IMG/VR virus record: IMGVR_UViG_3300025000_000120
Location: 1 to 57,549 of that record
Direction: 5' to 3' (one strand)
Length of the DNA stretch: 57,549 nucleotides
From: a virus
Taxonomy: Duplodnaviria; Caudoviricetes
Under the pieces are notes generated by a model that worked only from the letters and a program-made list of their open reading frames with translations, did no database searches and was not told the origin of the DNA. The position numbers and the translations under genes are program-made. Positions 28,311 to 41,313 of the stretch are shown piece by piece. Each line of letters opens with the position of its first letter. Position 1 is the stretch's first letter.

Positions 28311-28360
28311 CCCCTTTTCAAGGCGCCCGGTGGGCGAATTTCGGTTTACCGGTAATGATG
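28311..28360 (-). repeat. Twin-hairpin 5' leader element, copy 3
   Basis: CATCATTACCGGTAAACCGAAATTCGCCCACCGGGCGCCTTGAAAAGGGG. Confidence 0.7.
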
Positions 28361-28361
28361 A

Positions 28362-28553
28362 CTACTTATTCAAAGATTCCATTTTACGACGGTATAACAT
28401 CTCAAGATCATTACTACTTTGATTGGCTATGAAATTCCGGTTCTTCAATTTCTCAATACGCCATTCCACATATTTAATTCCGACGGCTCCAACTCCGACA
28501 CATACAACGGCACCAATGGCTACGGTTCTAAAATTAAATGCCAACATAATCAT
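28362..28553 (-). CDS. Small membrane protein
   Basis: GAGGTG RBS; single TM helix. Confidence 0.55.
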   Translation of the reverse strand: MIMLAFNFRTVAIGAVVCVGVGAVGIKYVEWRIEKLKNRNFIANQSSNDLEMLYRRKMESLNK

Positions 28554-28614
28554 AGTTTCACCTCACTGAAAAATAGGATGCTATGTATTTTACTACATGC
28601 ATCCCGTTCAAGAT

Positions 28615-28809
28615 CTACTCTTCTGAGTCGGTTTCAATATCCACGATTTCATTTAAATCTACTTCCACATCCTCAACAACCACTTCATCAGTACCTAGTT
28701 TACCGGCCACTACAACCACTAACGCTATTGCGCCAGTTACTGCTAATGCTCCGTAAACTAATCCTTTTAAAACTCTCGTTTTGTTTGCTTTAATAATATT
28801 CATAAACAT
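28615..28809 (-). CDS. Cassette-borne small membrane protein (basic-TM-acidic)
   Basis: Directly downstream of the promoter repeat at 28839. Confidence 0.65.
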   Translation of the reverse strand: MFMNIIKANKTRVLKGLVYGALAVTGAIALVVVVAGKLGTDEVVVEDVEVDLNEIVDIETDSEE

Positions 28810-28962
28810 GATATATTCCCACTTTCAAATTTTATTCTTTCATTATAGGGCATGTAATTTTCGCGAGGCTAGGTTACTTTGCTTTTCGAGTTTAACAATC
28901 GTAGTAGTTCCAAAGGCTGATGCCTCATAACTTAATACATTCTTTTCATAGTGATTAATCCC

Positions 28963-29787
28963 TTAATAACTACGCTCTTGATATCTTGGGGTAACGGTAA
29001 AGTCCAACACGATACATGGCTCGTCATTCTCAGCAAATGCAGTTCCAAATTTAGCTTCGATTAACCCCTTATCATCGGAGTACCAACCCAGCAAATCGCC
29101 CATTTTAATCCCCTTCATGCCAAGACCAATATATACATCGTTTACAGGCATGAATCCTTGCATATCGTTCAATAACTCTCGACTTAGATCGTTAAGCACT
29201 CGTTCAATTTGTGCCCTGTCACTTCTAAAATATCTTCCTGACAATTCATCATAACAAAGAGTCTCGCCTCTACCTGTGAATACAACTTCACGTTCGCTAA
29301 CCGGATTGACTATAAGTTTATCCTTGTATATTTCTTCTACAACCTCACGCTCCTTACCCTTACCAATGGTTTCAATCACCTTACTCTTATACTGTCTAAA
29401 AGCTGCGTCAGATAATGAATATAACCCCGCCAATGCAGCGTTCCTACGCAGATGGATAGTGTTAGCTCCCACAATACCCCCGATTGTAACCACACCCATT
29501 ATTACGGTTGGAATATAACACTTCCATGTGAGTTTGACAATTTCCAGTTTGGTAATAGGGATTATGGAATAGTGGCCGCTACTCTCTTCACCTTTCTCAA
29601 TACCCTCATCTTCACGACGATATCGTTCCTCGTCAAGAATACGAATAGCCTTAGGTGTTGCCCTTACGGCCATTACTGCAGTACTAAGTAGCCCTGCTAC
29701 ACCGAGTATTGTAAGTAAGGTTGGTGAGTTTTTACCAGCTAATGCACCTATGGATCTTGTTGCTTTTTGTATGTTTGCTACGTTCAT
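28963..29787 (-). CDS. DUF6353-like membrane protein
   Basis: NSPTLLT..G.AG...A.RATPKA, RRNAALA..Y, SGRYF, LGW; paralog of 19168-20103. Confidence 0.75.
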   Translation of the reverse strand: MNVANIQKATRSIGALAGKNSPTLLTILGVAGLLSTAVMAVRATPKAIRILDEERYRREDEGIEKGEESSGHYSIIPITKLEIVKLTWKCYIPTVIMGVVTIGGIVGANTIHLRRNAALAGLYSLSDAAFRQYKSKVIETIGKGKEREVVEEIYKDKLIVNPVSEREVVFTGRGETLCYDELSGRYFRSDRAQIERVLNDLSRELLNDMQGFMPVNDVYIGLGMKGIKMGDLLGWYSDDKGLIEAKFGTAFAENDEPCIVLDFTVTPRYQERSY

Positions 29788-29792
29788 TGATA

Positions 29793-30098
29793 TTATTCCC
29801 CCTTCAAAAGTTCAATTTTGCTTAGATGATTATTAATTCGTTCCTGCAATAAAACTATTGCCGATTCCGCATAGGCTATTAAAATTTCCTTTGCTCGAGC
29901 ATCATCCCTTTCTTTAAGCCATACCATTGAATTGTATACTATACCTTCTTCGGCAGCACAACCAAGACTTTTAGTTTTGGATTTAAAGGACCCGCGTTTG
30001 TGATATTCATAAACCCGTCCTTCATGAACAGTGAATCTGCCGTTCAATAAAGAATACAAATAGACGTGTTCTTGAAGTAATGGATATGGTCTGGTCAT
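29793..30098 (-). CDS. Hypothetical protein
   Basis: TTGAAAGGAG RBS. Confidence 0.6.
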   Translation of the reverse strand: MTRPYPLLQEHVYLYSLLNGRFTVHEGRVYEYHKRGSFKSKTKSLGCAAEEGIVYNSMVWLKERDDARAKEILIAYAESAIVLLQERINNHLSKIELLKGE

Positions 30099-30130
30099 TA
30101 GTATTATCTCCTTTCAAAAAATATAATGAA

Positions 30131-30200
30131 AGAATATGTAGGATTCGAACCTACGACACTTAGCTTACACTAATCGCTCTAGCCACTGAGCTAATATTCT
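30131..30200 (-). tRNA. Atypical tRNA-like RNA (Tyr-like GTA in a 6-nt anticodon loop; no CCA)
   Basis: AGAATAT TA GCTC AGTGGCTA GAGC G ATTAG TGTAAG CTAAG TGTC GTAGG TTCGAAT CCTAC ATATTCT: perfect acceptor, D and T arms, but a non-canonical anticodon loop. Confidence 0.7.
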
Positions 30201-30232
30201 TTCATTATATAGTATGTAATTTTCGCGAGCAT

Positions 30233-30601
30233 TCATCGATACCCATTTTTTTCGTTACGTAATTCCAGTACAACTACAGATCGACATTGGCTTATACTCA
30301 AACCAAACTTCATACCAATATCTTTGTAGGTGTATCCCGAGTCCCGCATTTGTTTAATGGCGATGTTTCGAGTTTTACATTTAGTTGATCCTCGCTCCTT
30401 TGCGTAGTTATGGGCACTCAATGGTTGGGTTATCTTTTCGATTTTTTTGGTGTCACCATTGGCATACATAATTACTCCAAACTTTTTTTCATAATTAGAT
30501 CTGATTTGTAATAGAGTCTTCACAACAGATATTAAATCGTCGTTGGAATCAATCTCCGTTGGGAGTTCCTGTTTTTTTCGATCCAGATAACGCTTCTTCA
30601 T
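30233..30601 (-). CDS. Protein with C-terminal HTH (sigma region 4-like)
   Basis: RNIAIKQMRDSGYTYKDIGMKFGLSISQCRSVV. Confidence 0.6.
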   Translation of the reverse strand: MKKRYLDRKKQELPTEIDSNDDLISVVKTLLQIRSNYEKKFGVIMYANGDTKKIEKITQPLSAHNYAKERGSTKCKTRNIAIKQMRDSGYTYKDIGMKFGLSISQCRSVVVLELRNEKNGYR

Positions 30602-30749
30602 CTCTAAAACAATAGTCTCCTTCCCAACAGCCCATTAGGGCTTCGACGCACTTACTACAGTCTTTAGGTAATATACCTTTAGTTGGTGATACTTGGCACT
30701 TTATGAGTTTAGACTTTTTTTTCATTAGTATCCTCCTTAAAATATGAGC

Positions 30750-30805
30750 AAAAAAGAAATGGCTAGGACTTACTCCTAGGTAGACTATTCAAACAGTCCA
30801 CTTCT
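30750..30805 (-). ncRNA. Cassette-borne small structured RNA
   Basis: AAGAAGTGGACTGTTTGAATAGTCTACCTAGGAGTAAGTCCTAGCCATTTCTTTTTT: two hairpins, paired ends, U tract, no ORF. Confidence 0.6.
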
Positions 30806-30835
30806 TTCATTATATAGTGCGTAATTCACGCGAGC

Positions 30836-30912
30836 AAAAAAGAAGTCCAAGCGAGAATTAACTCATTAGGTACTCTTGGATGTCCGTATGTCTAGCATAT
30901 AGAACTCTTCTT
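30836..30912 (-). ncRNA. Cassette-borne small structured RNA
   Basis: Ends pair (AGAAG/CTTCT); internal stems TATG/CATA, TCCAAG/CTTGGA and GAG/CTC; U tract; no RBS or ORF. Confidence 0.6.
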
Positions 30913-30945
30913 TTCATTATATAGTGTGTAATTTTCGCGAGAAAA

Positions 30946-31004
30946 ATAATGGTTATTCAATATACCCGACTTGCGCCGATGGGAATCAAACCCACTAACA
31001 TTAT
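30946..31004 (-). ncRNA. Circularly permuted tRNA-elbow mimic, copy 1
   Basis: ATAATG TTA GTGGG TTTGATT CCCAT CGGC GCAA GTCG GGT ATATTGAATA ACC ATTAT then U tract. Confidence 0.75.
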
Positions 31005-31077
31005 CTTTCATTATACAGCATGTAATTTCGCGAGCAAAAAGAAATGCTAAGTTTCCTTAACAACTTCTCTTTATAAG

Positions 31078-31263
31078 TTAATCTTTATCCATACTTAGTT
31101 TCACATGTTCCGCCTTGAATCGTATCTTAATCATAGTTTCTTGGGTCTCTCCATTGTCGCTTGTTGTTGTGCTTGGAATATCAAATTCCATTTCACAGTT
31201 ACGTGCTTCGTATAAGACACCTTTTTTTATAATTGCTGATATAATTACATCGGTGATTTTCAT
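31078..31263 (-). CDS. Cassette-borne small protein
   Basis: Own promoter repeat, RBS and terminator. Confidence 0.7.
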   Translation of the reverse strand: MKITDVIISAIIKKGVLYEARNCEMEFDIPSTTTSDNGETQETMIKIRFKAEHVKLSMDKD

Positions 31264-31335
31264 ATGCTTTTCCGCCTTTCAAATATAACTTCTATTATAG
31301 CGCATGTATCCTACGCGAGCAAAAAGAATAGAAGC

Positions 31336-31569
31336 TTAATAAGCTTCTATTCTCCCTTTAATTCCAACAAAGCTTAATACTTTTAAATCATATTCTAATT
31401 TCTTAATAACCGACTTCTTACTGACGAATGTAATTTCAACTGTTCCATCAATCATGAGACATATGTCGATCGTTGTTCCCGATTTCTTATATGTTTCAAT
31501 GAGTTTTGTAACTTTCGAACTATCCCCGTTCAATACTCTTGTGATTACTTTAAATTCCTTAGTAAACAT
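31336..31569 (-). CDS. Cassette-borne small protein
   Basis: Own promoter; stop inside the terminator hairpin GAATAGAAGCTT-ATT-AAGCTTCTATTC. Confidence 0.7.
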   Translation of the reverse strand: MFTKEFKVITRVLNGDSSKVTKLIETYKKSGTTIDICLMIDGTVEITFVSKKSVIKKLEYDLKVLSFVGIKGRIEAY

Positions 31570-31626
31570 GCTATATTCCTCCTAAATTTTATTTCTTTCA
31601 CTATATAGCATGTTACGTACGCGAGT

Positions 31627-32097
31627 CTATCGATTAGAATACGGACATCCACCAATGCCTGGATTGTCATCACACACGGGAACGTCATACTTGGCAAATA
31701 ACTTTCGTACACTACAATTACTCGGTAAATCGGAACAATTATTGCAAGCTACCATAGCTTTTTCACATAGATCTAATAAATCTGAAGTCTGGATTGGCGT
31801 GACGCTGTCAAGTTCTAACATTTGCTTATACTCACGTATTGCGTCGTTGCGGTACTTCAAAACAACATCCATTTTCTTAGACTGACTCATTAAATTATCG
31901 GATTCGAGATCATCCAACTGTTCACACTTTATACATAGTGCTCTGAATATAAACGATTTAGCCATTCGAAGGGCTTTGACAGAATCTTTATTGCCTATGT
32001 TCTTAGCCCATTCATCAGCCGTACCAGTTGCATAATCTATGAACGCCGATAAGGTTAAGACCTGGTTCTTCTCTAGTCGATTGAAATATGTTTTCAT
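31627..32097 (-). CDS. Hypothetical protein with C-terminal Cys cluster
   Basis: GAGGAGG RBS; C..C...C...CPY. Confidence 0.7.
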   Translation of the reverse strand: MKTYFNRLEKNQVLTLSAFIDYATGTADEWAKNIGNKDSVKALRMAKSFIFRALCIKCEQLDDLESDNLMSQSKKMDVVLKYRNDAIREYKQMLELDSVTPIQTSDLLDLCEKAMVACNNCSDLPSNCSVRKLFAKYDVPVCDDNPGIGGCPYSNR

Positions 32098-32115
32098 CGT
32101 ACGCCTCCTCCTACT

Positions 32116-32160
32116 CTATACACGGTATAGTAACGGTCCAATGTGAAGCCACGGGTACAT
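32116..32160 (-). CDS. Possible 14-aa peptide MYPWLHIGPLLYRV
   Basis: GGAGGTGG RBS just after a truncated repeat. Confidence 0.3.
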   Translation of the reverse strand: MYPWLHIGPLLYRV

Positions 32161-32201
32161 AGTATATAATACCACCTCCACGCGAGCAAAAGAGAAAAGG
32201 A

Positions 32202-32351
32202 TCAGCCCTCAAGGAGCTTTTCCAATTCATCTACTTGTTCCGTAAATCGCTTTTTAAATTCTTCAAATGTCAGCGAACAGGCTTCCGATTCGATAAAGGT
32301 TCTCAATTTTATAAGTACCTCATCTATTTCTTCAACCGTAATCTTTTTCAT
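32202..32351 (-). CDS. Cassette-borne 49-aa acidic helical protein (not in ORF track)
   Basis: MKKITVEEIDEVLIKLRTFIESEACSLTFEEFKKRFTEQVDELEKLLEG; AAGGAGG RBS; promoter at 32375. Confidence 0.7.
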   Translation of the reverse strand: MKKITVEEIDEVLIKLRTFIESEACSLTFEEFKKRFTEQVDELEKLLEG

Positions 32352-32429
32352 AATAAAACCTCCTTCAATTTACTTTCATTATACGGTATGTACCTAACGC
32401 GAGCAGAAAGAGAGAGACTAAGTCTCTCA

Positions 32430-32651
32430 TCAGTTTCCTAATAAAGTCTCTAACTCTCTCATAGCTCTTTCAAATCTTCTTGTGGCTTCCCCTCCTGTAT
32501 ATGTATCCGCGTCAGTACCAATGCGTTCGTGCCAGGTTATTGCTTCGGACGATACCATATAAATGTCATTTACAATGTCATTTTCATAATTTTCGTCTAT
32601 CATCTTTAACCGATACTTCATATTGATCTTCGTAACTTCTATCATATCCAT
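32430..32651 (-). CDS. Cassette-borne small acidic protein
   Basis: Promoter at 32676, GAGGAGG RBS, terminator. Confidence 0.7.
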   Translation of the reverse strand: MDMIEVTKINMKYRLKMIDENYENDIVNDIYMVSSEAITWHERIGTDADTYTGGEATRRFERAMRELETLLGN

Positions 32652-32712
32652 AATAAAGGCCTCCTCAAATTTATTTTCATTATGGAGTATGTAACTAACG
32701 CGAGTAATATGT

Positions 32713-33306
32713 CTACTTAATTTGCCAAAACACTATATCTCTTTTTTTTGTACCCACTTGCATTGGATATTTTGTGATTTCCAGCAATTTGTCAAATAAA
32801 TCGTAATTATATAGAGTTAACAAATCTCGTCTAATACATAATTTATTTATGCCATATCGCTTATTAAACACGTTCCAAAGATGAATGCCTTCCGACAAAT
32901 TCCCAGAACATGATAACAATGACACGGGATGTCTATACATATGCCTCAACGGTATTTTTAAATCCGAAGCTTCAAATATAAAGTCTCCATTCTTTTTAAT
33001 TTTAGCAACCATGTTATACTTTTGAAACTTATCGTATTGAATAGCGTTACTTATAATAAGTTTATATTGTTTACCCTGTGCCTCATCCCAGATCAAATCT
33101 AAATATTCATTATCTTGCTCTTTTGCCTTGTCAAATACATAAAAAGGCAGGTCTTCGGATATGTATTTATGATCTGTTCTTATGGTGCACAATCCAAACT
33201 TATCTATCAGATCCACGTACTCATCATATGTTTCGGGTATGTAAAATTGATGAATATTCAAATTTAATTCCATAATGCGATTAAGACTTTGAATTTTATC
33301 GAACAT
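32713..33306 (-). CDS. Hypothetical protein
   Basis: 197-aa AT-rich ORF with G-run RBS. Confidence 0.65.
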   Translation of the reverse strand: MFDKIQSLNRIMELNLNIHQFYIPETYDEYVDLIDKFGLCTIRTDHKYISEDLPFYVFDKAKEQDNEYLDLIWDEAQGKQYKLIISNAIQYDKFQKYNMVAKIKKNGDFIFEASDLKIPLRHMYRHPVSLLSCSGNLSEGIHLWNVFNKRYGINKLCIRRDLLTLYNYDLFDKLLEITKYPMQVGTKKRDIVFWQIK

Positions 33307-33345
33307 GTTATACCCCCCATATATCCATTGTGAGAAAAAGAAAAC

Positions 33346-33531
33346 CTAAGCTTTCTCTGGTATAAGAGTTAAATGTTTATTGGACTTAAAGTTTATTTTG
33401 AATTCTTTAATTCCGTTTTGATGAGCAATATTGGTTACTAAATCCATAAGATAGTCTAATGATATAGTAACTCCTTCTCTACTCTCTAATTCAGCAACTA
33501 GTTCTTCGGTTGATATTTTTGATAAATCCAT
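33346..33531 (-). CDS. Cassette-borne small protein
   Basis: MDLSKISTEELVAELESREGV; ends EKA-TAG inside the terminator. Confidence 0.7.
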   Translation of the reverse strand: MDLSKISTEELVAELESREGVTISLDYLMDLVTNIAHQNGIKEFKINFKSNKHLTLIPEKA

Positions 33532-33605
33532 AATTACTCAACTCCTTTCATTATATCGCATGTATCCATCGCGACCAAAAAGAAAGCCTAAACTTTCTCT
33601 CCTTT

Positions 33606-33836
33606 CTATAAAAGTGGTTTGTTTAGTATTGTTCTGATACTGGATTCGTTTATAAACATATTTTTGCTAATTTCGACATTAGACAGTCCTATACTCTTTA
33701 GTCTGGTTGCCTTGGCGTAAAGATCATTCATTAATTCCTCTTCGCCCTGACACGCTATACTTCTTAGTTTAGTTACTGTAATACCCATTCTTTTAGCAAC
33801 GTCTGCTTCACTTACTTCCAATGTACGTTCAATCAT
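33606..33836 (-). CDS. Stand-alone tandem-HTH protein paralogous to the RNAP N-terminus
   Basis: ATRLKSIGLSNVEISKNMFINESSIRTILN versus RNAP ANRLKAKGYSNVEIGKRMGGRNESSVRSLLD. Confidence 0.8.
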   Translation of the reverse strand: MIERTLEVSEADVAKRMGITVTKLRSIACQGEEELMNDLYAKATRLKSIGLSNVEISKNMFINESSIRTILNKPLL

Positions 33837-33951
33837 ATTAAACACACGCCTTTCACTTTCATTATAAAGCATGTTATGTACGCGAGGTCTACCGATAACA
33901 GCCTACTACGCAGAACCGGCAAAAAGAAAGCCTAAGCTTTCTCCGCTAGAC

Positions 33952-34281
33952 CTATAATTCTACCTCATGGTAATTTCCGTTATCGAGATCACTCATTGTT
34001 GCGAGGAACGCTTCGGATACCGTAATATCACTATTAACCGGTAAATCTAACGTCCATCCAATACCTGAGCCTTGCTCGTTTCCTTGAAACCAATGAATAG
34101 AATAATCAGGTTCCTTTGCGGGAATCTCTACGACTTCTTCTTCTTTCTTAGTGTTTAGGCCAATTGTTATTAGAGCTAAAACCCCCATTCCAACGATAAT
34201 CCCAGCTGCTATGACCTTTTCTTTGTGGTTGTTCCACAAGACCTTAGCCTGTTCTTTCACTGATAATTTGTTTTTAATCAT
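33952..34281 (-). CDS. Cassette-borne membrane protein
   Basis: Promoter at 34299; basic-TM-acidic layout. Confidence 0.7.
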   Translation of the reverse strand: MIKNKLSVKEQAKVLWNNHKEKVIAAGIIVGMGVLALITIGLNTKKEEEVVEIPAKEPDYSIHWFQGNEQGSGIGWTLDLPVNSDITVSEAFLATMSDLDNGNYHEVEL

Positions 34282-34480
34282 AATACAAATACCTCACTTT
34301 CATTATGACGTATGTAACAGTCGCGATCCTATCGATCCTCCGTTCGCATGATTAATGTGAATATAGCGGTGGCTCTAGCCTTAAGTTCCTCATTCGTAAG
34401 GTCTGATAGTAATTCGATACATAAACGATCATGTTCGGCATATAGCTCGGCATAGGTCATGGTATAAGAATCTTTCGTCA

Positions 34481-34780
34481 TCACACGTCCTCCACCAACA
34501 CTAATGTTTTTCTGTTAACGGCATAAGACATATACTTTAAAACACGTTGTTTCTTCCGCTGTATTAAATTATCATTATCAAGAATAGGAATAAGACATTC
34601 TTCTTTAAGCATTTCAAATACCCCAAGAAGATCTCCAAACTCAATAGCGATTTTTTCAGCAGTATTAATATCACTCTTCCATTTATCATCAAGGCCAAAT
34701 CGTAAAGCTTTTGCGGCTTCTTTTTGAATTTCTGAACATTCTTCAATTAAACAGGTTAATAAATGTTCGGTTTTATTCAT
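34481..34780 (-). CDS. MazG-like NTP pyrophosphohydrolase
   Basis: EECSEIQKEAAKALRFG...EFGDLLG. Confidence 0.65.
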   Translation of the reverse strand: MNKTEHLLTCLIEECSEIQKEAAKALRFGLDDKWKSDINTAEKIAIEFGDLLGVFEMLKEECLIPILDNDNLIQRKKQRVLKYMSYAVNRKTLVLVEDV

Positions 34781-34826
34781 AATATCCTCCTTATTAATTT
34801 TTAGACTTAGACATTAACCTAAAGTA

Positions 34827-35009
34827 CTATTCGTTAACCCCATATACAAATATCCAATTCTCTGCACGAGTCTCATAATATACACGATCGTCCACACGTA
34901 CGTCAAAGTACTTAATTCCGTTTTTTTCATAGACGGCCACTACAATTCCACTAAACTCGTTGTTGATATTTTTTACCTCATCTTGATAGCCTGGTAATGT
35001 TACACTCAT
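34827..35009 (-). CDS. Small SH3-like hypothetical protein
   Basis: GAGGAG RBS; beta-rich. Confidence 0.55.
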   Translation of the reverse strand: MSVTLPGYQDEVKNINNEFSGIVVAVYEKNGIKYFDVRVDDRVYYETRAENWIFVYGVNE

Positions 35010-35022
35010 AGTTATACTCCTC

Positions 35023-35556
35023 CTAAATGCCTTTTATTTTGCATGCTATCATATCTGCCATGTGGGAATACAGAACATTCGGATAACGATCAATGGCTCT
35101 ACCATAATATGCCCATTTATTGGTATCTTTTTCATAAGAACCCATATGCCATCTTATACACGCTACTTCTTCGTCCGTAAGATCCATATATTTTTGAAGG
35201 TATATAACCGACTTCTCCCCATGACCATCAATAAGGAGTTGATCATTGTACTTATATGGATGTTCCCCATCGGGCGTTTTGATATAGTTGTCAATTTTAC
35301 ATAGATCATGGAATAACCCAACGATCAACGGTGATTCTGGACGTTGCCATTTCAAGCCCATACCTATTGTTAGTTTCTGTAACGTGTCATAAACCTCGTA
35401 GCTGTGGTCAAATAACCCGCCCTCGTAACTTCCATGACGCTTCGTACTTGCTGGTGCGGTTAGGAATTCGGCTATTGGGAATTTACCATTCGTGAGAACT
35501 CCTAGTTTACCATAAGTTAAAGCTCTAAATTTGTCATATCTATCATCGAAATTCAC
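35023..35556 (-). CDS. HD-domain phosphohydrolase
   Basis: APAS..HG..EGGL.DHS, FHDLCK, GHGEKS, RWHMG, HMADM. Confidence 0.85.
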   Translation of the reverse strand: MNFDDRYDKFRALTYGKLGVLTNGKFPIAEFLTAPASTKRHGSYEGGLFDHSYEVYDTLQKLTIGMGLKWQRPESPLIVGLFHDLCKIDNYIKTPDGEHPYKYNDQLLIDGHGEKSVIYLQKYMDLTDEEVACIRWHMGSYEKDTNKWAYYGRAIDRYPNVLYSHMADMIACKIKGI

Positions 35557-35558
35557 AA

Positions 35559-35795
35559 TTACACCTCCTTCCTTAGAATATGATTCCGGAATTCATGATC
35601 ATCACTTATTTCACTAGCGCGTAATATTTGTAGCGTCATCCAAGTGGCGATATAACCCTTTTGGTTTAGATATTTCTTACCTTCGGTGACATCCATTTTC
35701 CACATAACGCCAACGACTTCTCTAGGGGCATTCGTTATTAAGACATTATGTGCATCATATATGAAGGCTCTACAACTATCTAAGTCTCCCTGCAT
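35559..35795 (-). CDS. Hypothetical protein (paralog of 37212-37406)
   Basis: AFIYD.HNVLITNAPREVV shared. Confidence 0.7.
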   Translation of the reverse strand: MQGDLDSCRAFIYDAHNVLITNAPREVVGVMWKMDVTEGKKYLNQKGYIATWMTLQILRASEISDDHEFRNHILRKEV

Positions 35796-35798
35796 TAA

Positions 35799-36203
35799 TT
35801 ACACCTCTTTCCTTAAAATATGGTTCCACAACACGCCTTTGATATAAACATTTTTAATACCAGCGTTGACAATCATTCGACGGCACATAAAGCAGGGTTC
35901 GTCCGTAACATAAATATCCGCACCATCAATCGATATACCATGTCTCGCGGCTTGAATGATTGCATTTGCTTCAGCGTGCACACTTTTGCATAATTCGTAA
36001 CGTTCGCCGGGTTTAACCCTTAGTCGTTCACGCTCACACACCACACAGTGCGCTTCACCCATAGGGGTTCCATTATATCCACTACTTAATATTAGTCTAT
36101 CTTTCACGATTATAGCACCCACGTTACGACGTAAACACGTTGATCTAGTCGCCACTGTCTTAGCAAGTAATGCAAAGTATTCACTCCATGATGGTCTAGT
36201 CAA
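35799..36203 (-). CDS. dCMP deaminase family protein
   Basis: RSTCLRRNVGA, SGYNG, HAEANA, PCFMC. Confidence 0.9.
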   Translation of the reverse strand: MTRPSWSEYFALLAKTVATRSTCLRRNVGAIIVKDRLILSSGYNGTPMGEAHCVVCERERLRVKPGERYELCKSVHAEANAIIQAARHGISIDGADIYVTDEPCFMCRRMIVNAGIKNVYIKGVLWNHILRKEV

Positions 36204-37191
36204 GTTTACGCACCTTCTCACTAGTAATTGGATTTATCAGATATACGTCTCCCATATTTTCTCTTATCCATTGAATTTTATCATCCGATGGTATTGGTCC
36301 ATATTTATCCTCGACGAGCTTAATAAGATTTATCAGATATACGTCTCCCATATTTTCTCTTATCCATTGAATTTTATCATCCGATGGTATTGGTCCATAT
36401 TTATCCTCGATGAGCTTAATAAGATTTATAGACATCCCTCCATATTTACGATTTGTTTCAATTTCACCCAACATGCTTTTTAAATTAGAAACATGTTTGT
36501 CGACACCATCTAACATTTTTAATGTTTTCTGATTAGACTCTTCTCCATTAAGGTTTTCTTCTCTCATCAATATGTCATTATTTTTCTTAATGATCCCCTT
36601 TCTTAAATCAAAATTAAATAGAGATCGTTCGGGCTTAGATCTTGATGGAATATCCTGTAATTCAGGATGCTTTTCTTCTATCCACATAGCACCAATAATA
36701 TTCCACGCAGCAGCAACAAGATGATCCTCGTCCGTCTGCCCATCAACACATTTTAATAGATGTCGAATTCCACTATCTATAAAACTACTAATCGGAAGAC
36801 CTTTTTCCCAATTTCTCGGGGCATATTTTACTGCGCCAGCCTCATAATGCTTCGAAAGACGTAATAATGCACATGCTGGATATGATGAATATTTTGGAAT
36901 ATCTATTGATTTTTTTTCTTCCATATACATGGCATCTATTAAATCACATGCGGCCGCGCAAAGATGATCATGATTTGTTTCGCCATCTAGATAAAACATC
37001 AATCGGATCAACGAATCATCCAACATAGAGCAAAACGATACATTATCGTTAAGTCTTCTGGCATTAGCCCGATATTGAGATATTCTCAATAGAGCCGCCG
37101 CCGGTAATAGATCACATCGACCCTTACCTTCACTCATATCACGTACGGCACCACTTTCAAATTCTCGTCTATCGCCACTGTCTTTTAACAT
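36196..37191 (-). CDS. dATP/dGTP diphosphohydrolase-like (DUF5664) protein with a duplicated C-terminal tail
   Basis: FESGAVRD...KGRCDLLP, GAVKY..RNWEKG, RHL, EDHL.AA.WN. Confidence 0.75.
   Translation of the reverse strand: MLKDSGDRREFESGAVRDMSEGKGRCDLLPAAALLRISQYRANARRLNDNVSFCSMLDDSLIRLMFYLDGETNHDHLCAAACDLIDAMYMEEKKSIDIPKYSSYPACALLRLSKHYEAGAVKYAPRNWEKGLPISSFIDSGIRHLLKCVDGQTDEDHLVAAAWNIIGAMWIEEKHPELQDIPSRSKPERSLFNFDLRKGIIKKNNDILMREENLNGEESNQKTLKMLDGVDKHVSNLKSMLGEIETNRKYGGMSINLIKLIEDKYGPIPSDDKIQWIRENMGDVYLINLIKLVEDKYGPIPSDDKIQWIRENMGDVYLINPITSEKVRKLD
36231..36429. repeat. 96-bp in-frame tandem duplication
   Basis: 36231-36326 and 36327-36422 differ at one base. Confidence 0.95.
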
Positions 37192-37211
37192 AGTATAAAC
37201 ATCTCTCTTTC

Positions 37212-37406
37212 TCAAACTACTTCACTGGAACGTAATCGTTGTAAGGTCATCCACGTAGCCACATAACCTTTTTGTGTTAGATTTTTCAAACCTTCGGTAA
37301 CGTCTAAATGCCACATAACCGCAACAACTTCCCTAGGCGCATTGGTTATCAAGACGTTATGCTCGTCATATATGAATGCCTTACACTTATCTAAATCTTC
37401 TTGCAT
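37212..37406 (-). CDS. Hypothetical protein (paralog of 35559-35795)
   Basis: High similarity over about 60 aa; AAAGGAG RBS. Confidence 0.7.
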   Translation of the reverse strand: MQEDLDKCKAFIYDEHNVLITNAPREVVAVMWHLDVTEGLKNLTQKGYVATWMTLQRLRSSEVV

Positions 37407-37679
37407 GGCAATATCTCCTTTCTTAAACTTAGAATATAAATTACTAATGTGGCATAGAACATAGCATCAGATACATTGTTCCCGTAAAACTGAAGTTAGT
37501 GTTGGTCGAATTTGTAACTTCTCTCCAAGTTCTCTTTTCGAAGAAATTCACATCTCACATTTTAGACCCTATCTTTTTATTAACGAGTTAACCCGATATA
37601 ACAACGATCATAGCCGCTACGCCCATCAAAACACCTGTAAAATATACTGGTTCCTTCTTTCAAAATATGGCTTAGTGAG

Positions 37680-37775
37680 AAAAAAGAAATAGCTGTACGT
37701 AGGTCCGGTTTGACTCTTAATCTTCATCTCCTACTGTTATCGCCAGGGACTTAATGCCCTATACTCGCTTATTCT
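37680..37775 (-). ncRNA. Cassette-borne structured RNA of about 95 nt
   Basis: Ends pair (AGAATAAGC/GCTATTTCT); stems AGGG/CCCT and GTAGG/CCTAC; U tract. Confidence 0.55.
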
Positions 37776-37818
37776 TTCATTATATAGTATGTAATTTTCG
37801 CGAGCAAAAAGAAAGAGT

Positions 37819-37980
37819 CTAAGCTCTCTCAGATTCAATTGCTTCTGTAACAACATTATCGCTCAGCGTAAGATAGACATAGTCCTTTGGATTAGGACCT
37901 TCTCTGAATATGGCGAACGTTTCATTGTTATCGGCATTTAAGTCTAAGAGTTCTTTAACTCTTTCTAAATTTATTTCATT
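37819..37980 (-). pseudogene. Start-less cassette ORF (53 open codons ending ERA-TAG in the terminator)
   Basis: Frame NEINLERVKELL...IESERA has no in-frame ATG/GTG/TTG. Confidence 0.4.
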
Positions 37981-38015
37981 ATAGAATATGTTACGTACGC
38001 GAGCAAAAAGAAAGC

Positions 38016-38207
38016 CTAAGCTTCCTCCTTATCAATAAGTTTATTAATAATATGGGCTTTTATATCATTCAGTTCTGTAGCACTTGGTATCGAATTTCCG
38101 TCCTCATCCAAAACTTCCATTTTAAAGTTTTCAATTTTAAATTGTTTTGCGTTCTCGATATTTACATCAATTAGTACCTCTGCTACTGCTACGATTTTTA
38201 CTTTCAT
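38016..38207 (-). CDS. Cassette-borne small acidic protein
   Basis: AAGGAGG RBS; ends EEA-TAG in the terminator. Confidence 0.75.
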   Translation of the reverse strand: MKVKIVAVAEVLIDVNIENAKQFKIENFKMEVLDEDGNSIPSATELNDIKAHIINKLIDKEEA

Positions 38208-38297
38208 GATAATCCTCCTTATTTTATAAATTTCTTTCATTATATGGAATGTAATTCACGCGAGGTCTCATGACAACCATCTACTACACAGAATGGG

Positions 38298-38372
38298 CTA
38301 GAAGGGAAGATGTGTACATGGATATTCTCCCGTACGTATCAGTCTACTATTTTCGACTAATATCATCTTCTA
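38298..38372 (-). ncRNA. Cassette-borne structured RNA
   Basis: GAAGATG/CATCTTC closing stem enclosing AGTC/GACT and GTAC..GGA/TCC..GTAC arms. Confidence 0.55.
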
Positions 38373-38409
38373 TTATAGAGTAGGTTACGTACGCGAGCAG
38401 AAAGAAAGC

Positions 38410-38616
38410 CTAAGCTTCCTCTACGTCTGATATAATTTTAGCGGCGATAATTGTTCCAATTATTAATCCTGCTGTAGCGCTTATAAACGCGCACGCAAAC
38501 CCCTTCCACCAACCTTCATCAAAGCACTTCTTTTTTAATTGTTGTACTTCAAATTCGTTTGTTGGAATAGTCTCACATTCCTCTGTTTGTAGGTGATGCA
38601 TTCTTATCATTTTCAT
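38410..38616 (-). CDS. Cassette-borne small protein with C-terminal TM helix
   Basis: AAAGGAG RBS; ends EEA-TAG. Confidence 0.75.
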   Translation of the reverse strand: MKMIRMHHLQTEECETIPTNEFEVQQLKKKCFDEGWWKGFACAFISATAGLIIGTIIAAKIISDVEEA

Positions 38617-38694
38617 AATATCAATCTCCTTTAAATTTATTTCATTATATAGCAGGTTATCCACGCGAGCAGAAAGAAAGCCTAAGCTTCCTTC

Positions 38695-38958
38695 TCACAT
38701 TAAGGTCTTAAATCCTTCGTAAATTATTTCTGTCATTTTTTGTTGAACTTTAAAATTCTGATAATCCTGTTCTCTACCTTGGCAGCATAATACGTACACC
38801 TTTGATACTAGTGATCCATCTGAATCTGAAACTACTTCCGACTCTCTCAAGTCGAGTACTTTAAATTCATTGGCTCTAAGTATCCTGGTTACACTTATTA
38901 CTGCCTTTTCTAACAACTGAGTTATCACTCTAAATTCAATTATTTTAGTCATAATCAT
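38695..38958 (-). CDS. Cassette-borne small protein
   Basis: AGGAGG RBS; own promoter and terminator. Confidence 0.75.
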   Translation of the reverse strand: MIMTKIIEFRVITQLLEKAVISVTRILRANEFKVLDLRESEVVSDSDGSLVSKVYVLCCQGREQDYQNFKVQQKMTEIIYEGFKTLM

Positions 38959-39020
38959 TCCTCCTATATTTTGCTTAATGTCATTATGGTGTATGCAAAT
39001 ATCGCGAGCAGAAAGAAAGC

Positions 39021-39254
39021 CTAAGCTTCCTCGATGTTTTCTGCTACTTCGTAGAATTTCCCATCGATTTCAATTATGCTTCCATCTTTTAAACCTTGTT
39101 TAATTTTCTTGTTGAATTTCACTTCGTTAATAACATTGCCAACTCCAACAGCAACATGCCCTATAGCACTAAATGCAATTCCAACTACTGCTGGCACTAC
39201 TACTAATACTACAAAACCCATTACTGCTAGGTCTACGATATCTTTATCTTTCAT
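39021..39254 (-). CDS. Cassette-borne small membrane protein
   Basis: Start at MKDKD; ends EEA-TAG. Confidence 0.75.
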   Translation of the reverse strand: MKDKDIVDLAVMGFVVLVVVPAVVGIAFSAIGHVAVGVGNVINEVKFNKKIKQGLKDGSIIEIDGKFYEVAENIEEA

Positions 39255-39327
39255 GATAATTCCTTCTTTCAAATTAAATTTATTTCATTATAGAATATGT
39301 TACGTACGCGAGCAAAAAGAAAGAAAC

Positions 39328-39456
39328 CTATTTGGCTTCTCCCCATGTCAATACCTTGGATGTTTCGTTAGCTATTACTATACTCGCCATTGCTACTACC
39401 ATTACTAAAGAAACTCCAGCGAGTCCTCCTAAAATAGTTTTTGCAATATTCTTCAT
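39328..39456 (-). CDS. Cassette-borne 42-aa TM peptide (not in ORF track)
   Basis: MKNIAKTILGGLAGVSLVMVVAMASIVIANETSKVLTWGEAK; stop in the terminator loop. Confidence 0.7.
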   Translation of the reverse strand: MKNIAKTILGGLAGVSLVMVVAMASIVIANETSKVLTWGEAK

Positions 39457-39577
39457 AATAAATTCCCTCTTTCAAGTTTATTTTCATTATATAGCACGTA
39501 ATTCACGCGAGCAAAAAAAGAAACCTAAGTTCCTTCATTATGCTATTTAGTGATTTGTAATATACTCGTTCATTGTA

Positions 39578-39712
39578 TTATTTCATATTTACTGCGTTGT
39601 TACGTCTGTGATTCACTACTACCGTTGCTATTATCGCAAAGGCTACAATCAATCCTGCTGTAATTCCTACAGTAGTCATGGTTAATGCTACTTGTTGAAC
39701 TTTAATATACAT
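39578..39712 (-). CDS. Cassette-borne 44-aa TM peptide (not in ORF track)
   Basis: MYIKVQQVALTMTTVGITAGLIVAFAIIATVVVNHRRNNAVNMK; AAGGAG RBS. Confidence 0.7.
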   Translation of the reverse strand: MYIKVQQVALTMTTVGITAGLIVAFAIIATVVVNHRRNNAVNMK

Positions 39713-39782
39713 ATTAATCGCTCCTTTTATTTACATAATTCTTCTATTATATAATGCATAATGGACGCGAGCAAAAAAAAAA

Positions 39783-39841
39783 ATAATGGCAATCCAATTA
39801 ACCCAGTTTTCACTGATGGGAATCGAACCCACTAACATTAT
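39783..39841 (-). ncRNA. Circularly permuted tRNA-elbow mimic, copy 2
   Basis: ATAATG TTA GTGGG TTCGATT CCCAT CAGT GAAA ACTG GGT TAATTGGATT GCC ATTAT then U11. Confidence 0.78.
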
Positions 39842-39911
39842 CTTTCATTATATAATGTGTAATTCACGCGAGGTATGATAACCACTATCTGTCACGCAGA
39901 ACGAGCAAAAA

Positions 39912-39987
39912 AAAGAAGCGACGGGTTCGAACCGCATTTCTCTGGTAGATATACCAGCGCTTTAACTTTTAAGCTAAATTTTCTTCT
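39912..39987 (-). tRNA. Degenerate tRNA-like RNA (6-nt anticodon loop, broken acceptor stem)
   Basis: TA GCTT AAAAGTTA AAGC G CTGGT ATATCT ACCAG AGAAAT GCGG TTCGAAC CCGT; ends GAAG/CTTC then U tract. Confidence 0.6.
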
Positions 39988-40028
39988 TTCATTATGTAGT
40001 ATGTAATACACGCGAGCAGAAAGAAAGC

Positions 40029-40190
40029 CTAAGCTTCCCTCCCGACAATGTCATGAATAATCGGTCTTTTGTTTTTAACATTCATTGTATCTATTATGTC
40101 GAATATCTTTTTGTTAGCATCTTTTCGTCCTTGCCAGTAACATGTACCAGCAATCGTCAAACCTACAATCAATAACCATAATGTTTTCAT
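40029..40190 (-). CDS. Cassette-borne 53-aa membrane peptide (not in ORF track)
   Basis: MKTLWLLIVGLTIAGTCYWQG...IVGREA; stop in the terminator; AAAGGAG RBS. Confidence 0.72.
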   Translation of the reverse strand: MKTLWLLIVGLTIAGTCYWQGRKDANKKIFDIIDTMNVKNKRPIIHDIVGREA

Positions 40191-40277
40191 AATGTTAATC
40201 TCCTTTCAAAATTATCATAACACTTTCATTATAGTATATGTTTTGGATGCGAATCGAGCAAAAAGAGAAGGCATGTT

Positions 40278-40571
40278 TTACACACGCCCCTTAATGATAA
40301 ACCCTAACGCTTTCGTAGTTATTACTCCAGCTTGTTCAAATCCCAATATCAGTGCTATGCCCAATAGATTACCTGCTATGATCAGAATCGTGTCTTTCTT
40401 TATTTTCTGTTCGCGTTTTATCGCGTCCATTTTATAAAGCTTTTCAAGATTATCGGTCATATTTTTGTATTCCGCTGAGTCTGGCTGATGTTGTTTCATA
40501 ATTTCCAAGACTGCTGCAATTTCTGCTTCAAGCGCCGTTTGTTTATTCTTTTTGGTGAATTTCTTAAACAT
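40278..40571 (-). CDS. Cassette-borne membrane protein
   Basis: Start at MFKKF; C-terminal GNLLGIALILGFE..GVITTKA. Confidence 0.75.
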   Translation of the reverse strand: MFKKFTKKNKQTALEAEIAAVLEIMKQHQPDSAEYKNMTDNLEKLYKMDAIKREQKIKKDTILIIAGNLLGIALILGFEQAGVITTKALGFIIKGRV

Positions 40572-40694
40572 TTGCGTTCTCTCCTTCAAGATTTTATTCT
40601 TTCATTATAGCGTGAGTTATTTCCGCGAAGGAATCATCAACAATGGATTTTCGTAAACCTTGGAATTTTTACCGTCAATTATAATGTCGGTACA

Positions 40695-41138
40695 TTATAG
40701 GCATACGCCATCCTTCGCTGTTTGAAGTAAGAAACCGAGAAGAAACCACACTTTGTTTTTGATTCGGTCCTTACAAATATCCGAGCCCAACTTCTCATTG
40801 TAGTTAGCAGGGTCAACGCAGGCCGAAGACTCTACAATTGTGAAGTTATTAGCAAGAGTGGCCGTCACAATGGTGATCTTATTTTGTTGAGTCACCACCT
40901 CATAGGCTACGATGAAACCCTCAACTAACTCCTGGGTAATTGTGTTATTATCCCCAACTTGCATATACGCTTTTTCAAAAACATCTTTTGGAGACCAACC
41001 ACTGTAATTATCAGGATAATCCACTTTATAACCTTCTTGACTAGCGCCACTGTACACTAGAGGCCGAACTTGTTTGTTATACTCAGCTACGGTCATTGGT
41101 TCAGCTTGAATCATCTTAAAACCGATGTATTTTTTCAT
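40695..41138 (-). CDS. N4 gp49/Sf6 gp66-family protein with an N-terminal YIGxK...WSPKxVFE domain
   Basis: L.NNFTIVESSACVDPANYN..LG..IC...I...VW.LLGFLL. Confidence 0.75.
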   Translation of the reverse strand: MKKYIGFKMIQAEPMTVAEYNKQVRPLVYSGASQEGYKVDYPDNYSGWSPKDVFEKAYMQVGDNNTITQELVEGFIVAYEVVTQQNKITIVTATLANNFTIVESSACVDPANYNEKLGSDICKDRIKNKVWFLLGFLLQTAKDGVCL

Positions 41139-41190
41139 TAGTCTTAATCCTCTCTTCTTTTAAATACCGTTTCATGCAAAATATAGCCAA

Positions 41191-41313
41191 ATCGTTTCTA
41201 AGGCCCCTGAGAGGCCTTCTAAGCCGTTTGACGTCCGTAGCCTATATATATGTATGCCCAGTAGCTTATAGTGGCGTACAGGGCAACGTCGAGGGCGGTT
41301 TTTTATGACTTTC
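41191..41313. repeat. Dispersed 123-bp non-coding element, copy 2
   Basis: Collinear with 6961-7083. Confidence 0.55.

Follow-up and report, generated by a model that had tools for sequence, protein, structure and literature searches.

The question raised by this locus is how a dense run of small genes and structured RNAs comes to be transcribed as separate units, and by which RNA polymerase. The locus occupies positions 28842-40629 of IMG/VR record IMGVR_UViG_3300025000_000120, a Caudoviricetes virus; the whole of this stretch (positions 1-57,549; 57,549 bp) was analysed and is referred to here as the window. The region is an array of 26 autonomous minus-strand transcription units, as had been claimed in an earlier note on this DNA, which proposed approximately 26 independent units of promoter, payload and terminator, and the array itself is real. 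The motif that opens these units is probably a promoter for the phage's own RNA polymerase.

Searching for the pattern CTCGCG-N14-TATAATGAAAG with no more than two mismatches gives 25 matches, all on the minus strand, where shuffled sequences lead one to expect 0.02; the same pattern read backwards, as a control, gives none. A relaxed form, [N]TCGC[GA]-N13-14-[TC]ATA[AGC]T, finds 28 copies on the minus strand of the entire window and none on the plus strand. Twenty-six of these lie at 28842-40629 and form two clusters of 13 (37779-40629 and 28842-34327), separated by a 3.4-kb nucleotide-metabolism operon; this agrees with the 25 copies in two clusters reported earlier, and the single outlier then placed at 4236 corresponds to a copy at 4235-4265. 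No copies are present among the tail and lysis genes of the window. The aligned copies have the consensus tTTTtTg-CTCGCG-taaATTACATACta-TATAAT-GAAAG, which can be summarised as a promoter of about 31 bp with the structure (C)TCGCG - N4 - TTACAT - N4 - TATAAT - GAAAG. Counted on the alignment, the hexamer is exactly TATAAT in 21 of the 28 copies, and an A at position 2 and a T at position 6 are found in every one.

The promoter is usually fused to the end of the preceding unit, as had been suggested: a T-rich tract and a G stand directly before approximately 16 of the 26 array promoters (a count made on the alignment), which thus lie immediately behind a hairpin and U tract. A script located ten hairpins in the window that combine a TTAG loop with a T-rich tail, and two weaker ones, at about 32428 and 31050, were seen by eye only. 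At the ends of units the hairpin runs directly into the U tract, as in intrinsic terminators, which provides predicted 3' ends; a generic terminator scan returned 17 sites where 8.1 are expected. TTAG is also the commonest terminator loop across the clade of related phages (19 of 107), and a repeat search recovered the fused terminator-promoter junction in families of 9 to 19 copies. In five of the ten TTAG hairpins, the TAG of the loop doubles as the stop codon of the upstream open reading frame (ORF), which ends in ..EEA, ..REA or ..EKA; the recurrence of ..EEA C-termini is explained by this placement of the stop codon within the terminator loop. The promoters at 33886, 38264 and 39872 share a longer variant of the junction (repeat family D6, 73-76% identity over 71 nt), in which about 45 nt are inserted between the U tract and CTCGCG.

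With TATAAT at its core, the motif had implicitly been treated in the earlier note as a host sigma-70 promoter starting transcription 5-8 nt past the hexamer, an interpretation that is not supported. A generic sigma-70 scan of positions 27000-43000, requiring four of six matches in each of TTGACA and TATAAT, returned 53 sites against 58.3 expected, and no copy of the motif qualifies. At the -35 position, 17 nt upstream of TATAAT, the copies read NNNCTC; nothing resembling TTGACA lies 16-18 nt upstream of the -10 hexamer, and there is no TG extension. Many copies show a TTG, but this comes from the tail of the terminator before them and is missing where no terminator precedes. The -10 side does conform to sigma-70 in the window (TATAAT, with A2 and T6), while the homologous motif of Faecalibacterium phage FP_oengus has (C/T)TTTAT. 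On account of the absence of a TTGACA-like -35 element, we infer that the motif is not a host sigma-70 promoter.

The position of the transcription start can be approached through what follows the hexamer. Across the clade there are 215 non-identical promoter instances, 168 of which are followed by a ribosome-binding site (RBS) and an open frame. In 29 of these 168 protein cassettes the RBS begins 1-6 nt past the hexamer (GAAAGGAG...), one of them being the window promoter at 33550-33575, where it begins 3-4 nt past TATAAT; in Gordonia phage Gravy an annotated ATG lies 9 nt past TATAAT. In 41 ORF-less RNAs from the clade, the closing stem has its 5'-most base at +1 in 17 cases, inside the hexamer in 10, at +2 to +6 in 14 and at +7 or beyond in none, with a C exactly opposite the first G in about 13 of the 41, by reading. 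As RBSs and RNA closing stems begin right after the hexamer, these positions make it most likely that transcription starts at the G directly after TATAAT. GAAAG would then comprise the first transcribed bases, which explains its double use as the start of an RBS and as the 5' strand of closing stems. Sigma-70 starts transcription approximately 6-8 nt past the -10 element, and a start at a purine abutting an AT-rich segment is the geometry of phage-polymerase promoters of the T7 or SP6 type, not of sigma-70.

These observations bear on the possibility that the array consists of ordinary strong early promoters, used by unmodified host sigma-A holoenzyme with starts 5-8 nt past TATAAT. The perfect -10 consensus fits such an arrangement, as does the location of the array directly after the lysis gene and towards the replication genes, which would suit an early region; the host-takeover module of phage SPO1 is built like an early array of many short operons with their own promoters, and those promoters match the host sigma-A consensus. 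It is nevertheless improbable, given that there is neither a TTGACA-like -35 element nor a TG extension, that the odd upstream element is kept in phages of both Actinobacteria and Firmicutes, and that the RBS positions contradict the start site. The likeness to SPO1 extends to the number of small early genes, around two dozen in many short operons with promoters of their own; no RNA payloads are described in the available text on that module, and no proteins homologous to its products were found among the payload proteins scanned.

The distribution of the motif is informative in this respect. An exact copy is present in 52 IMG/VR stretches, with the relaxed motif reaching 16 copies per locus, and in 51 of these 52 loci the copies are on one strand only, L034 (one forward, six reverse) being the exception. 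Among cultured phages, Arthrobacter phage Circum has six copies of (N)TCGCG-TAAATTACA-N5-TATAAT-AGAAG within its small-gene array, and Gravy has (T)CGCA-N4-5-(A/T)TACA(C/T)G(T/G/C)CC-TATAAT-GAGACCCCT. The motif of Lactococcus phage P078 is TTTTACAT(A/G)CCC-TATAAT-GA(A/G)AGG, with an AT-rich element upstream, and that of FP_oengus is ACGCG-AAAAAT-ACAG-N5-(C/T)TTTAT-G(G)AAAG, in which the hexamer has no A at position 2, a base that the sigma-70 -10 element needs. The hosts of these phages span two phyla (Actinobacteria and Firmicutes), in both of which the housekeeping sigma factors recognise TTGACA. Hence the motif appears to track the phage lineage and not the host, and to represent a family of promoters that is confined to one very large siphophage group.

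The candidate reader of the motif is a 954-amino-acid protein encoded in the window. It matches phrog_4291, 'RNA-dependent RNA polymerase', with E=0, and contains the sequence SGADFDGDAV, including ADFDGD, the metal-binding motif of two-barrel RNA polymerases. Matches to Sigma70_r4/helix-turn-helix (HTH) domains, resembling sigma region 4, lie near residues 350 and 910-950. A structural model built from 27 homologues has a mean predicted local distance difference test (pLDDT) score of 80.2, and a Foldseek search with this model retrieved QDE-1 (E 3e-11), followed by 8f5m (P74 gp62) and 8f72 ('Phage P32 gp64- RNA polymerase'), both at E 4-6e-6; further matches were to P23-45 gp96 and, more weakly, to a crAss-like phage polymerase and cellular beta-prime subunits. 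No PDB chain was matched by sequence. With the ADFDGD motif and these fold matches, the identification of this protein as a polymerase is solid.

Promoter and polymerase are found together whatever the host. The enzyme is encoded in 14 of 15 motif-bearing IMG/VR records, the exception being a linear record that is 88% complete, and in all 12 of those at least 90% complete. By tblastn, a homologue is present in 250 phage records, mostly annotated as an HTH protein, and Circum, Gravy, P078 and FP_oengus are all among them. Among the actinobacteriophage and Lactococcus records listed, the gene is found at the right end of the genome, with FP_oengus and some Streptomyces phages differing, and in the four loci with the closest polymerases (L061-L064) a strict copy of the motif stands approximately 0.9 kb upstream of the polymerase gene. 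In the mechanism proposed, this single-chain two-barrel polymerase, with its several sigma-4-like HTH modules, would read the promoter and start at the G after TATAAT, transcribing GAAAG first, and most units would end with a hairpin and U tract fused to the next promoter.

Several findings weigh against this enzyme as the reader. Four of the five lineages examined have a hexamer identical to the sigma-70 -10 consensus. The co-occurrence does not hold in reverse, as the relatives G006-G009 encode the polymerase and lack TATAATGAAAG; G006 lacks even the relaxed motif, and no replacement motif was recognised there. The distantly related enzyme YonO of prophage SPbeta transcribes late genes (PMC5467207, to the extent of the text available), whereas the motif is absent from the late genes both here and in the complete relative G015. 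The polymerase gene is itself behind the motif copy at 4240-4265, and no second polymerase was detected: the window contains a single DFDGD, and each of four of the five relative genomes scanned has one ADFDGD match. The first polymerase molecules are consequently unexplained if the phage polymerase reads the motif; they must come from the virion, from weak host initiation or from an unrecognised promoter. No canonical sigma-70 promoter that could supply them stood out in 1-7200 (21 sites against 23.2 expected) or in 27000-43000. The pairing of GAAAG with RNA 3' ends is partly trivial, in that a U-rich tract pairs with any A/G-rich 5' end, and has no shuffled control. Finally, of the eight ORF-less RNAs at the heads of units, folded from the G after the hexamer and compared with 200 shuffles, four (R2, z -1.29; R6, -0.76; R7, -0.53; R5, -0.48) fold no better than shuffled sequence.

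Some incidental results belong to these searches. In the fifth relative scanned, G015, the script scored no ADFDGD, though tblastn finds its polymerase; G003 has an extra, unrelated DWDSD match. A second polymerase fused to the tape measure, as in P23-45, was considered and set aside, there being one DFDGD-type motif only, in a window where the N-terminus of the tape measure is missing. As a replacement motif in G006, only RBS words and the word [GT]TTATATT turned up; the latter has 27 forward-strand copies there (loci L152-L154), mostly inside genes.

The main competitor to transcription by the phage polymerase supposes that host polymerase with sigma-A is recruited at TATAAT, a phage DNA-binding factor at TCGCG/TTACAT replacing the -35 contact in the manner of T4 MotA/AsiA, and that the phage polymerase serves other, late genes. 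This accounts for the perfect TATAAT in the window, Circum, Gravy and P078; it would centre TCGCG near -30 if TATAAT occupies -12 to -7; it is consistent with the absence of the motif from late genes and with the late-gene role of the distantly related YonO (PMC5467207, within the text available); and it raises no problem of who makes the first phage polymerase. It is rather unlikely all the same. No conserved candidate activator turned up apart from the polymerase itself: a free-standing HTH paralogue encoded in the array was rejected for this role, as it is specific to the window among the relatives searched. Moreover, a start 7 nt downstream of the hexamer would remove the RBSs that begin 1-6 nt past it (29 of 168), and the FP_oengus hexamer lacks the invariant -10 A.

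It is very improbable that the repeat is no promoter at all, and instead an operator, a packaging or partition repeat, or an attachment site for cassette recombination. Homology blocks between relatives do end at the repeats, and a free-standing HTH protein is encoded in the array. Against this stand the strict strand polarity shared with the genes, the fixed place between a terminator on one side and an RBS or RNA 5' stem immediately downstream, and the AT-rich hexamer followed by a conserved purine start; in addition, no recombinase was found among the window proteins scanned, a subset of the ORFs. An integron-like arrangement was set aside in the same way, since the cassettes carry their own promoters and no integrase is found among that subset.

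Known phage systems provide precedents for a dedicated polymerase reading such a set of promoters. The promoter sets of T7, T3 and SP6 consist of a long conserved motif repeated on the coding strand, with an AT-rich segment abutting a purine start. Closer still is P23-45, whose non-virion polymerase gp64 is reportedly associated with a strongly conserved, AT-rich motif that precedes 14 transcription starts of the early region (10.1101/2022.12.01.518664, in the text available): there too a conserved motif is repeated before early or middle genes and is served by the phage's own polymerase, which is of the same fold class as the enzyme described here. The present system differs from P23-45 in the sequence of the motif, in the sigma-4-like HTH modules of the polymerase, and in that almost every unit has its own terminator. 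YonO is likewise a single-chain two-barrel phage RNA polymerase; according to the available text, it transcribes one late operon from one start site and its promoter was still to be determined (PMC5467207). Its relationship to the enzyme of the window is distant, because no Bacillus phage is named among the organisms listed for the 250 tblastn matches (10 of 12 names). A literature search found no promoter for this polymerase family in the text accessible, subscription journals not being covered.

The units themselves are listed in Table 1. The distance from the end of one promoter to the next is 68-579 nt for single payloads, with three longer operons of 845, 1336 and 3451 nt; the payload size of 45-330 nt given in the earlier note was thus too narrow. 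Small proteins and structured RNAs are indeed both carried, as that note maintained: 17 units begin with a protein gene, eight with an ORF-less RNA and one with a start-less ORF, where about 16, about nine and one had been claimed, so that the last count stands and the first two are adjusted.

Table 1. Transcription units of the array and associated features of the window, with unit limits predicted from sequence alone. R1 to R9, payloads without an intact ORF; aa, amino acids; TM, predicted transmembrane span.
Feature	Position	Strand	Contents
Cassette 1	40278-40629	minus	promoter 40604-40629; ORF 40278-40589, 103 aa, 1 TM, phrog_5818
Cassette 2	40024-40253	minus	promoter 40228-40253; ORF 40029-40190, 53 aa, ends GREA; TAG stop in TTAG terminator loop
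Cassette 3	39907-40016	minus	promoter 39991-40016; RNA R1 ~39907-39990
Cassette 4	39773-39872	minus	promoter 39847-39872; RNA R2 ('family A')
Cassette 5	39578-39771	minus	promoter 39746-39771; ORF 39578-39712, 44 aa, 1 TM
Cassette 6	39328-39511	minus	promoter 39486-39511; ORF 39328-39456, 42 aa, 1 TM
Cassette 7	39016-39312	minus	promoter 39287-39312; ORF 39021-39254, 77 aa, 2 TM, ends IEEA; TAG stop in TTAG loop
Cassette 8	38677-39008	minus	variant promoter 38983-39008 (CATAAT); ORF 38695-38958, 87 aa; TTAG-loop terminator
Cassette 9	38405-38669	minus	promoter 38644-38669; ORF 38410-38616, 68 aa, 1 TM, ends VEEA; TAG stop in TTAG loop
Cassette 10	38265-38397	minus	promoter 38372-38397; RNA R3 ~38265-38371, no clear U tract
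Cassette 11	38011-38264	minus	promoter 38239-38264; ORF 38016-38207, 63 aa, ends KEEA; TAG stop in TTAG loop
Cassette 12	37815-38003	minus	promoter 37978-38003; start-less ORF (R4)
Cassette 13	37680-37804	minus	promoter 37779-37804; RNA R5 ~37680-37778, closing stem and U tract; then operon 34329-37406
Cassette 14	33925-34327	minus	promoter 34302-34327; ORF 33952-34281, 109 aa, 1 TM; TTAG-loop terminator
Cassette 15	33580-33886	minus	promoter 33861-33886; ORF 33606-33845, 79 aa, tandem HTH; TTAG-loop terminator
Cassette 16	32713-33575	minus	promoter 33550-33575; ORF 33346-33531, 61 aa, ends PEKA, TAG in loop; ORF 32713-33306, 197 aa
Cassette 17	32405-32704	minus	promoter 32679-32704; ORF 32430-32651, 73 aa; terminator GAGAGAC-TTAG-TCTCTC
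Cassette 18	32190-32403	minus	promoter 32378-32403; ORF 32202-32351, 49 aa
Cassette 19	31627-32186	minus	degenerate promoter 32161-32186 (TATACT); ORF 31627-32097, 156 aa, Cys-rich; homologue in G016
Cassette 20	31322-31625	minus	promoter 31600-31625; ORF 31336-31569, 77 aa; 13-bp terminator hairpin
Cassette 21	31036-31319	minus	promoter 31294-31319; ORF 31078-31263, 61 aa; TTAG-loop terminator
Cassette 22	30942-31034	minus	promoter 31010-31034, 13-nt spacer; RNA R6, second 'family A' copy, GCAA-loop hairpin
Cassette 23	30836-30941	minus	promoter 30916-30941; RNA R7 ~30836-30915, closing stem and U tract
Cassette 24	30233-30834	minus	promoter 30809-30834; RNA R8 ~30750-30808; ORFs 30549-30725 (58 aa), 30233-30601 (122 aa)
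Cassette 25	28963-30229	minus	promoter 30204-30229; RNA R9 ~30116-30203; ORFs 29793-30098 (101 aa), 28963-29787 (DUF6353)
Cassette 26	28615-28867	minus	promoter 28842-28867; ORF 28615-28809, 64 aa, 1 TM; then small genes without own motif
Motif copy outside array	26683-26708	minus	heads long gene run towards replication module
Motif copy outside array	4240-4265	minus	1.1 kb upstream of RNA polymerase gene
Operon without motif copies, between the two clusters	34329-37406	minus	paralogous small ORFs; dATP/dGTP diphosphohydrolase-like 36196-37215; dCMP deaminase 35799-36221; HD-domain protein 35023-35556
Two-barrel single-chain RNA polymerase, 954 aa	261-3125	minus	sigma-region-4-like HTH modules; candidate motif reader

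The content of the array is not fixed. The closest genomes, G016 and G015, have polymerases 63% and 66% identical to that of the window, and about ten payload blocks are common to the window and these two relatives. Their order differs: the window has A,B,C,D,R4,Nuc,E,F,G,H, whereas G016 has A,D,B,Nuc,R4,E,G,C,H,F; a block homologous to cassette 7 is at a different place in the G016 array, and the homologue of cassette 8 is the second cassette there. For homology blocks such as 39326-38981, 31328-31004 and 40133-39985, a promoter copy lies no more than about 15 nt from where the block begins or ends. Both parts of the earlier proposal, that payload order varies between relatives and that it does so at repeat boundaries, are thereby borne out against G016. 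Three further cases of turnover are the duplication that relates R2 and R6, the truncation of a gene at a promoter, and the capture of a fragment of the polymerase gene as the 79-aa HTH protein. The comparison with relatives suggests that recombination between identical promoter and terminator repeats would reorder, truncate and duplicate payloads, such reshuffling being permitted because every unit carries the same promoter and terminator.

The truncated gene is the start-less ORF of cassette 12. It is a pseudogene: the 3' remnant of a 102-aa TM protein gene that is intact in G016 (unit P28205; blastn 73% over 126 nt), with the truncation ending at a promoter copy. In G016 (loci L282-L284) the promoter copy at position 31216 has a TTAG-loop terminator only about 15 nt behind it, with an RBS and gene beyond; this arrangement resembles either a cassette without payload or a leader of the attenuator type.

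The other four RNAs are more stably folded than their shuffles: R9 (z -3.23), R8 (z -3.10), R1 (z -2.38) and R3 (z -2.09), with shuffles as good in none of 200 for R8, three for R1 and five for R3. R1 is a cloverleaf with a D arm, a T arm and an 8-bp closing stem, in which a UAUC tetraloop on a 6-bp stem stands in for the anticodon arm; at 39912-39983 it scores 25.5 bits against the Rfam tRNA model, below the gathering score of 29. R9, likewise a cloverleaf, is called tRNA-Leu(taa) by ARAGORN and reaches 51 bits with RF00005 over 30130-30200, above the threshold of 29. Its anticodon arm is, in the minimum-energy fold, a 5-bp stem (UUAGU/GCUAA) with a GUAA tetraloop, and in the cmscan alignment it has a short loop with a mismatched first pair rather than a loop of 7 nt; because this arm ends in a tetraloop, R9 is not a decoder. 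It is also without the long variable arm of bacterial tRNA-Leu, and its acceptor-like stem, at 10-11 bp, includes GAAAG and reaches the G after TATAAT. R8 has two hairpins inside a closing stem, followed by a U tract. R2 combines a closing stem, a T-arm-like hairpin (GTGGG-TTCGATT-CCCAT) and a GAAA-loop hairpin; R6, 81% identical to it over 86 nt, has the T-arm-like hairpin as well and a GCAA loop in place of GAAA, and by reading the differences in the stems keep the pairing. The 3' part of R3 belongs to the longer junction variant, family D6, that is common to two other promoters. No Rfam family other than tRNA matched the RNA payloads convincingly.

The same design recurs in relatives. In L016, L030, L017 and L038, RNAs with D and T arms have UUAA, UUCG, GCAA or GAAA in place of the anticodon loop, and ARAGORN assigns odd anticodons (aat, agt, tat and a 2-nt 'aa') to RNAs of the relatives; in P078 a tRNA-shaped RNA whose anticodon arm is shortened comes directly behind one of the promoter copies. 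A strict T-arm hairpin is found in 12 of 47 ORF-less units of the clade, a density of 2.80 per kb compared with 0.23 per kb in protein cassettes. The RNAs are not conserved in sequence, as the only matches of the nine ORF-less payloads in a blastn-short search of related loci were to T arms, to terminators and to the remnant R4. We regard the tRNA-shaped RNAs as tRNA mimics rather than decoders, which would act through the shape of the tRNA elbow and acceptor. Some of the 'RNA payloads' may instead be terminator-bearing leaders and not free small RNAs, because R8 and R9 precede ORFs and relatives have unrelated structured RNAs at the same place, before the DUF6353 gene.

Small stable RNAs that combine T and D arms with an acceptor-like stem and are encoded among early genes are familiar from the T4 tRNA cluster, with its species 1 and 2 RNAs, and from the tRNA-like modules of bacterial YrlA/Y RNAs. 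Those of the array differ in that the anticodon loop is a tetraloop and in that the RNA seems to span from transcription start to terminator, without flanks to process. A literature search, subscription journals not being covered, found no phage tRNA-like decoys. A search of IMG/VR with the T arm of family A was too generic and was dropped, as the matches looked like ordinary tRNA T arms. Two further ORF-less RNA families occur in relatives and are absent from the window: one of about 115 nt, starting GAAAGAGCAGTAAGACACGAAGG, in L010, at position 30769 of G016 and at 37295 of G015 (reverse complement), and another with ACGAATGTAGAATCTTAA and a T-arm-like GGAGTTCG..CTCC, in L017, L024 and L031.

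The protein payloads give less indication of function. A simple hydropathy test predicts a membrane span in 7 of the 17 first ORFs. A PHROG scan of 20 payload proteins left 16 without a match, and the remaining four matched families of no known takeover or anti-defence function, namely families of unknown function, the polymerase HTH or a weak 'membrane protein'; homology to known takeover proteins of the SPO1 type was thus not seen among these 20, and the host-takeover or anti-defence role put forward in the earlier note gains no support from the scan. The 79-aa protein at 33606-33845 matches phrog_4291 (E 2.7e-9), being a free-standing copy of the tandem HTH at polymerase residues 44-109 (BLASTP, 40% identity, E 8e-10), and no free-standing homologue was found in the nine relatives searched. 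We propose that the small, often membrane-spanning proteins act on the host envelope or on early steps of infection.

A far-reaching reading of the whole can be put forward tentatively, and is more doubtful than the promoter assignment itself. The motif would be the unreported promoter of a QDE-1-like single-chain polymerase present in hundreds of cultured siphophages of Actinobacteria and Firmicutes; together with the preferred TTAG-loop terminator it would form a host-independent grammar by which any captured sequence is expressed; and the RNAs would be a new class of phage RNA, start-to-terminator tRNA mimics that have a tetraloop for an anticodon loop and emerge already folded. Their targets would be host factors that respond to the shape of tRNA, for example defence nucleases directed at tRNA or enzymes of tRNA processing, for which they would act as decoys or inhibitors. 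In kind, precedents exist for a phage-specific set of promoters and terminators within the non-structural part of a genome. The earlier note considered the mix of protein and RNA payloads in one array apparently undescribed. In actinobacteriophage relatives an array of small membrane-protein genes is already on record at the same genome position (PMC5513430, PMC13313380), with the same architecture and the same polymerase gene at the right end, and Circum and Gravy have promoters of the same family; the text available from those papers describes the genes, and does not mention the promoter, terminator or RNA payloads. What appears to be new is the promoter family, which is probably tied to a widespread and so far uncharacterised polymerase, the terminator that contains a stop codon, and the anticodon-less tRNA-shaped RNAs as stand-alone units.

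If the assignment is correct, a family of polymerases known from no fewer than 250 deposited phage genomes would have its first promoter consensus; these genomes include student-isolated Arthrobacter, Gordonia and Streptomyces phages and dairy Lactococcus phages, where the gene is mostly annotated as 'helix-turn-helix DNA-binding protein'. Promoter finding by YonO-type enzymes would become testable in cultured phages of harmless hosts, and a compact orthogonal set of promoter, polymerase and terminator would be available. The recurrence of anticodon-less tRNA-shaped RNAs across the clade, including a cultured Lactococcus phage, offers a lead to a tRNA-mimic function in infection, and the array illustrates that payloads can be reordered, truncated and captured by a phage whose regulatory junctions are identical.

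The long ORFs of the window are all on the minus strand. In that direction, a tape measure gene cut by the contig end (53952-57549; it matches profile positions 876-1645 of 1681, so the N-terminus is missing), Dit and tail proteins lead to the endolysin (41608-42333) and the array (40629-28842). Beyond it come further small genes, then a primase-polymerase fusion, ligase, helicase, single-strand annealing protein and exonuclease, and finally the 954-aa protein. No terminase, portal or capsid gene is present in the window; as head genes come after the polymerase gene in complete relatives, the head module is missing, and the CheckV completeness estimate of 96% for the record looks too high. By megablast, the array has no match in the phage collection, and hence no close DNA relative there. 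In G015 (loci L279-L281), the stretch after the polymerase gene (reverse complement 6670-7145) contains an 18-bp perfect inverted repeat, GAGTGCTTTTACATATGG...CCATATGTAAAAGCACTC, which includes the promoter core TTACAT and may mark the end of the genome or serve in packaging or late control.

The operon at 34329-37406 that splits the array is concerned with nucleotide metabolism (dGTP_diPhyd_N/MazZ-like, dCMP deaminase and HD-domain proteins). The combination recalls genome-modification (Z-genome) pathways, an idea that was set aside, no search having been aimed at PurZ. Its paralogous small ORFs, at 37212-37406 and 35559-35795, are 78% identical. The window also has two DUF6353/phrog_2152 paralogues, at 28963-29787 and 19168-20103, and several relatives have a promoter copy, then a structured RNA and a U tract, ahead of their DUF6353 gene. 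Within the 3' part of the dATP/dGTP diphosphohydrolase-like gene, positions 36225-36416 consist of a 96-bp tandem duplication in perfect register, 97% identical, which repeats a 32-aa segment of the encoded protein.

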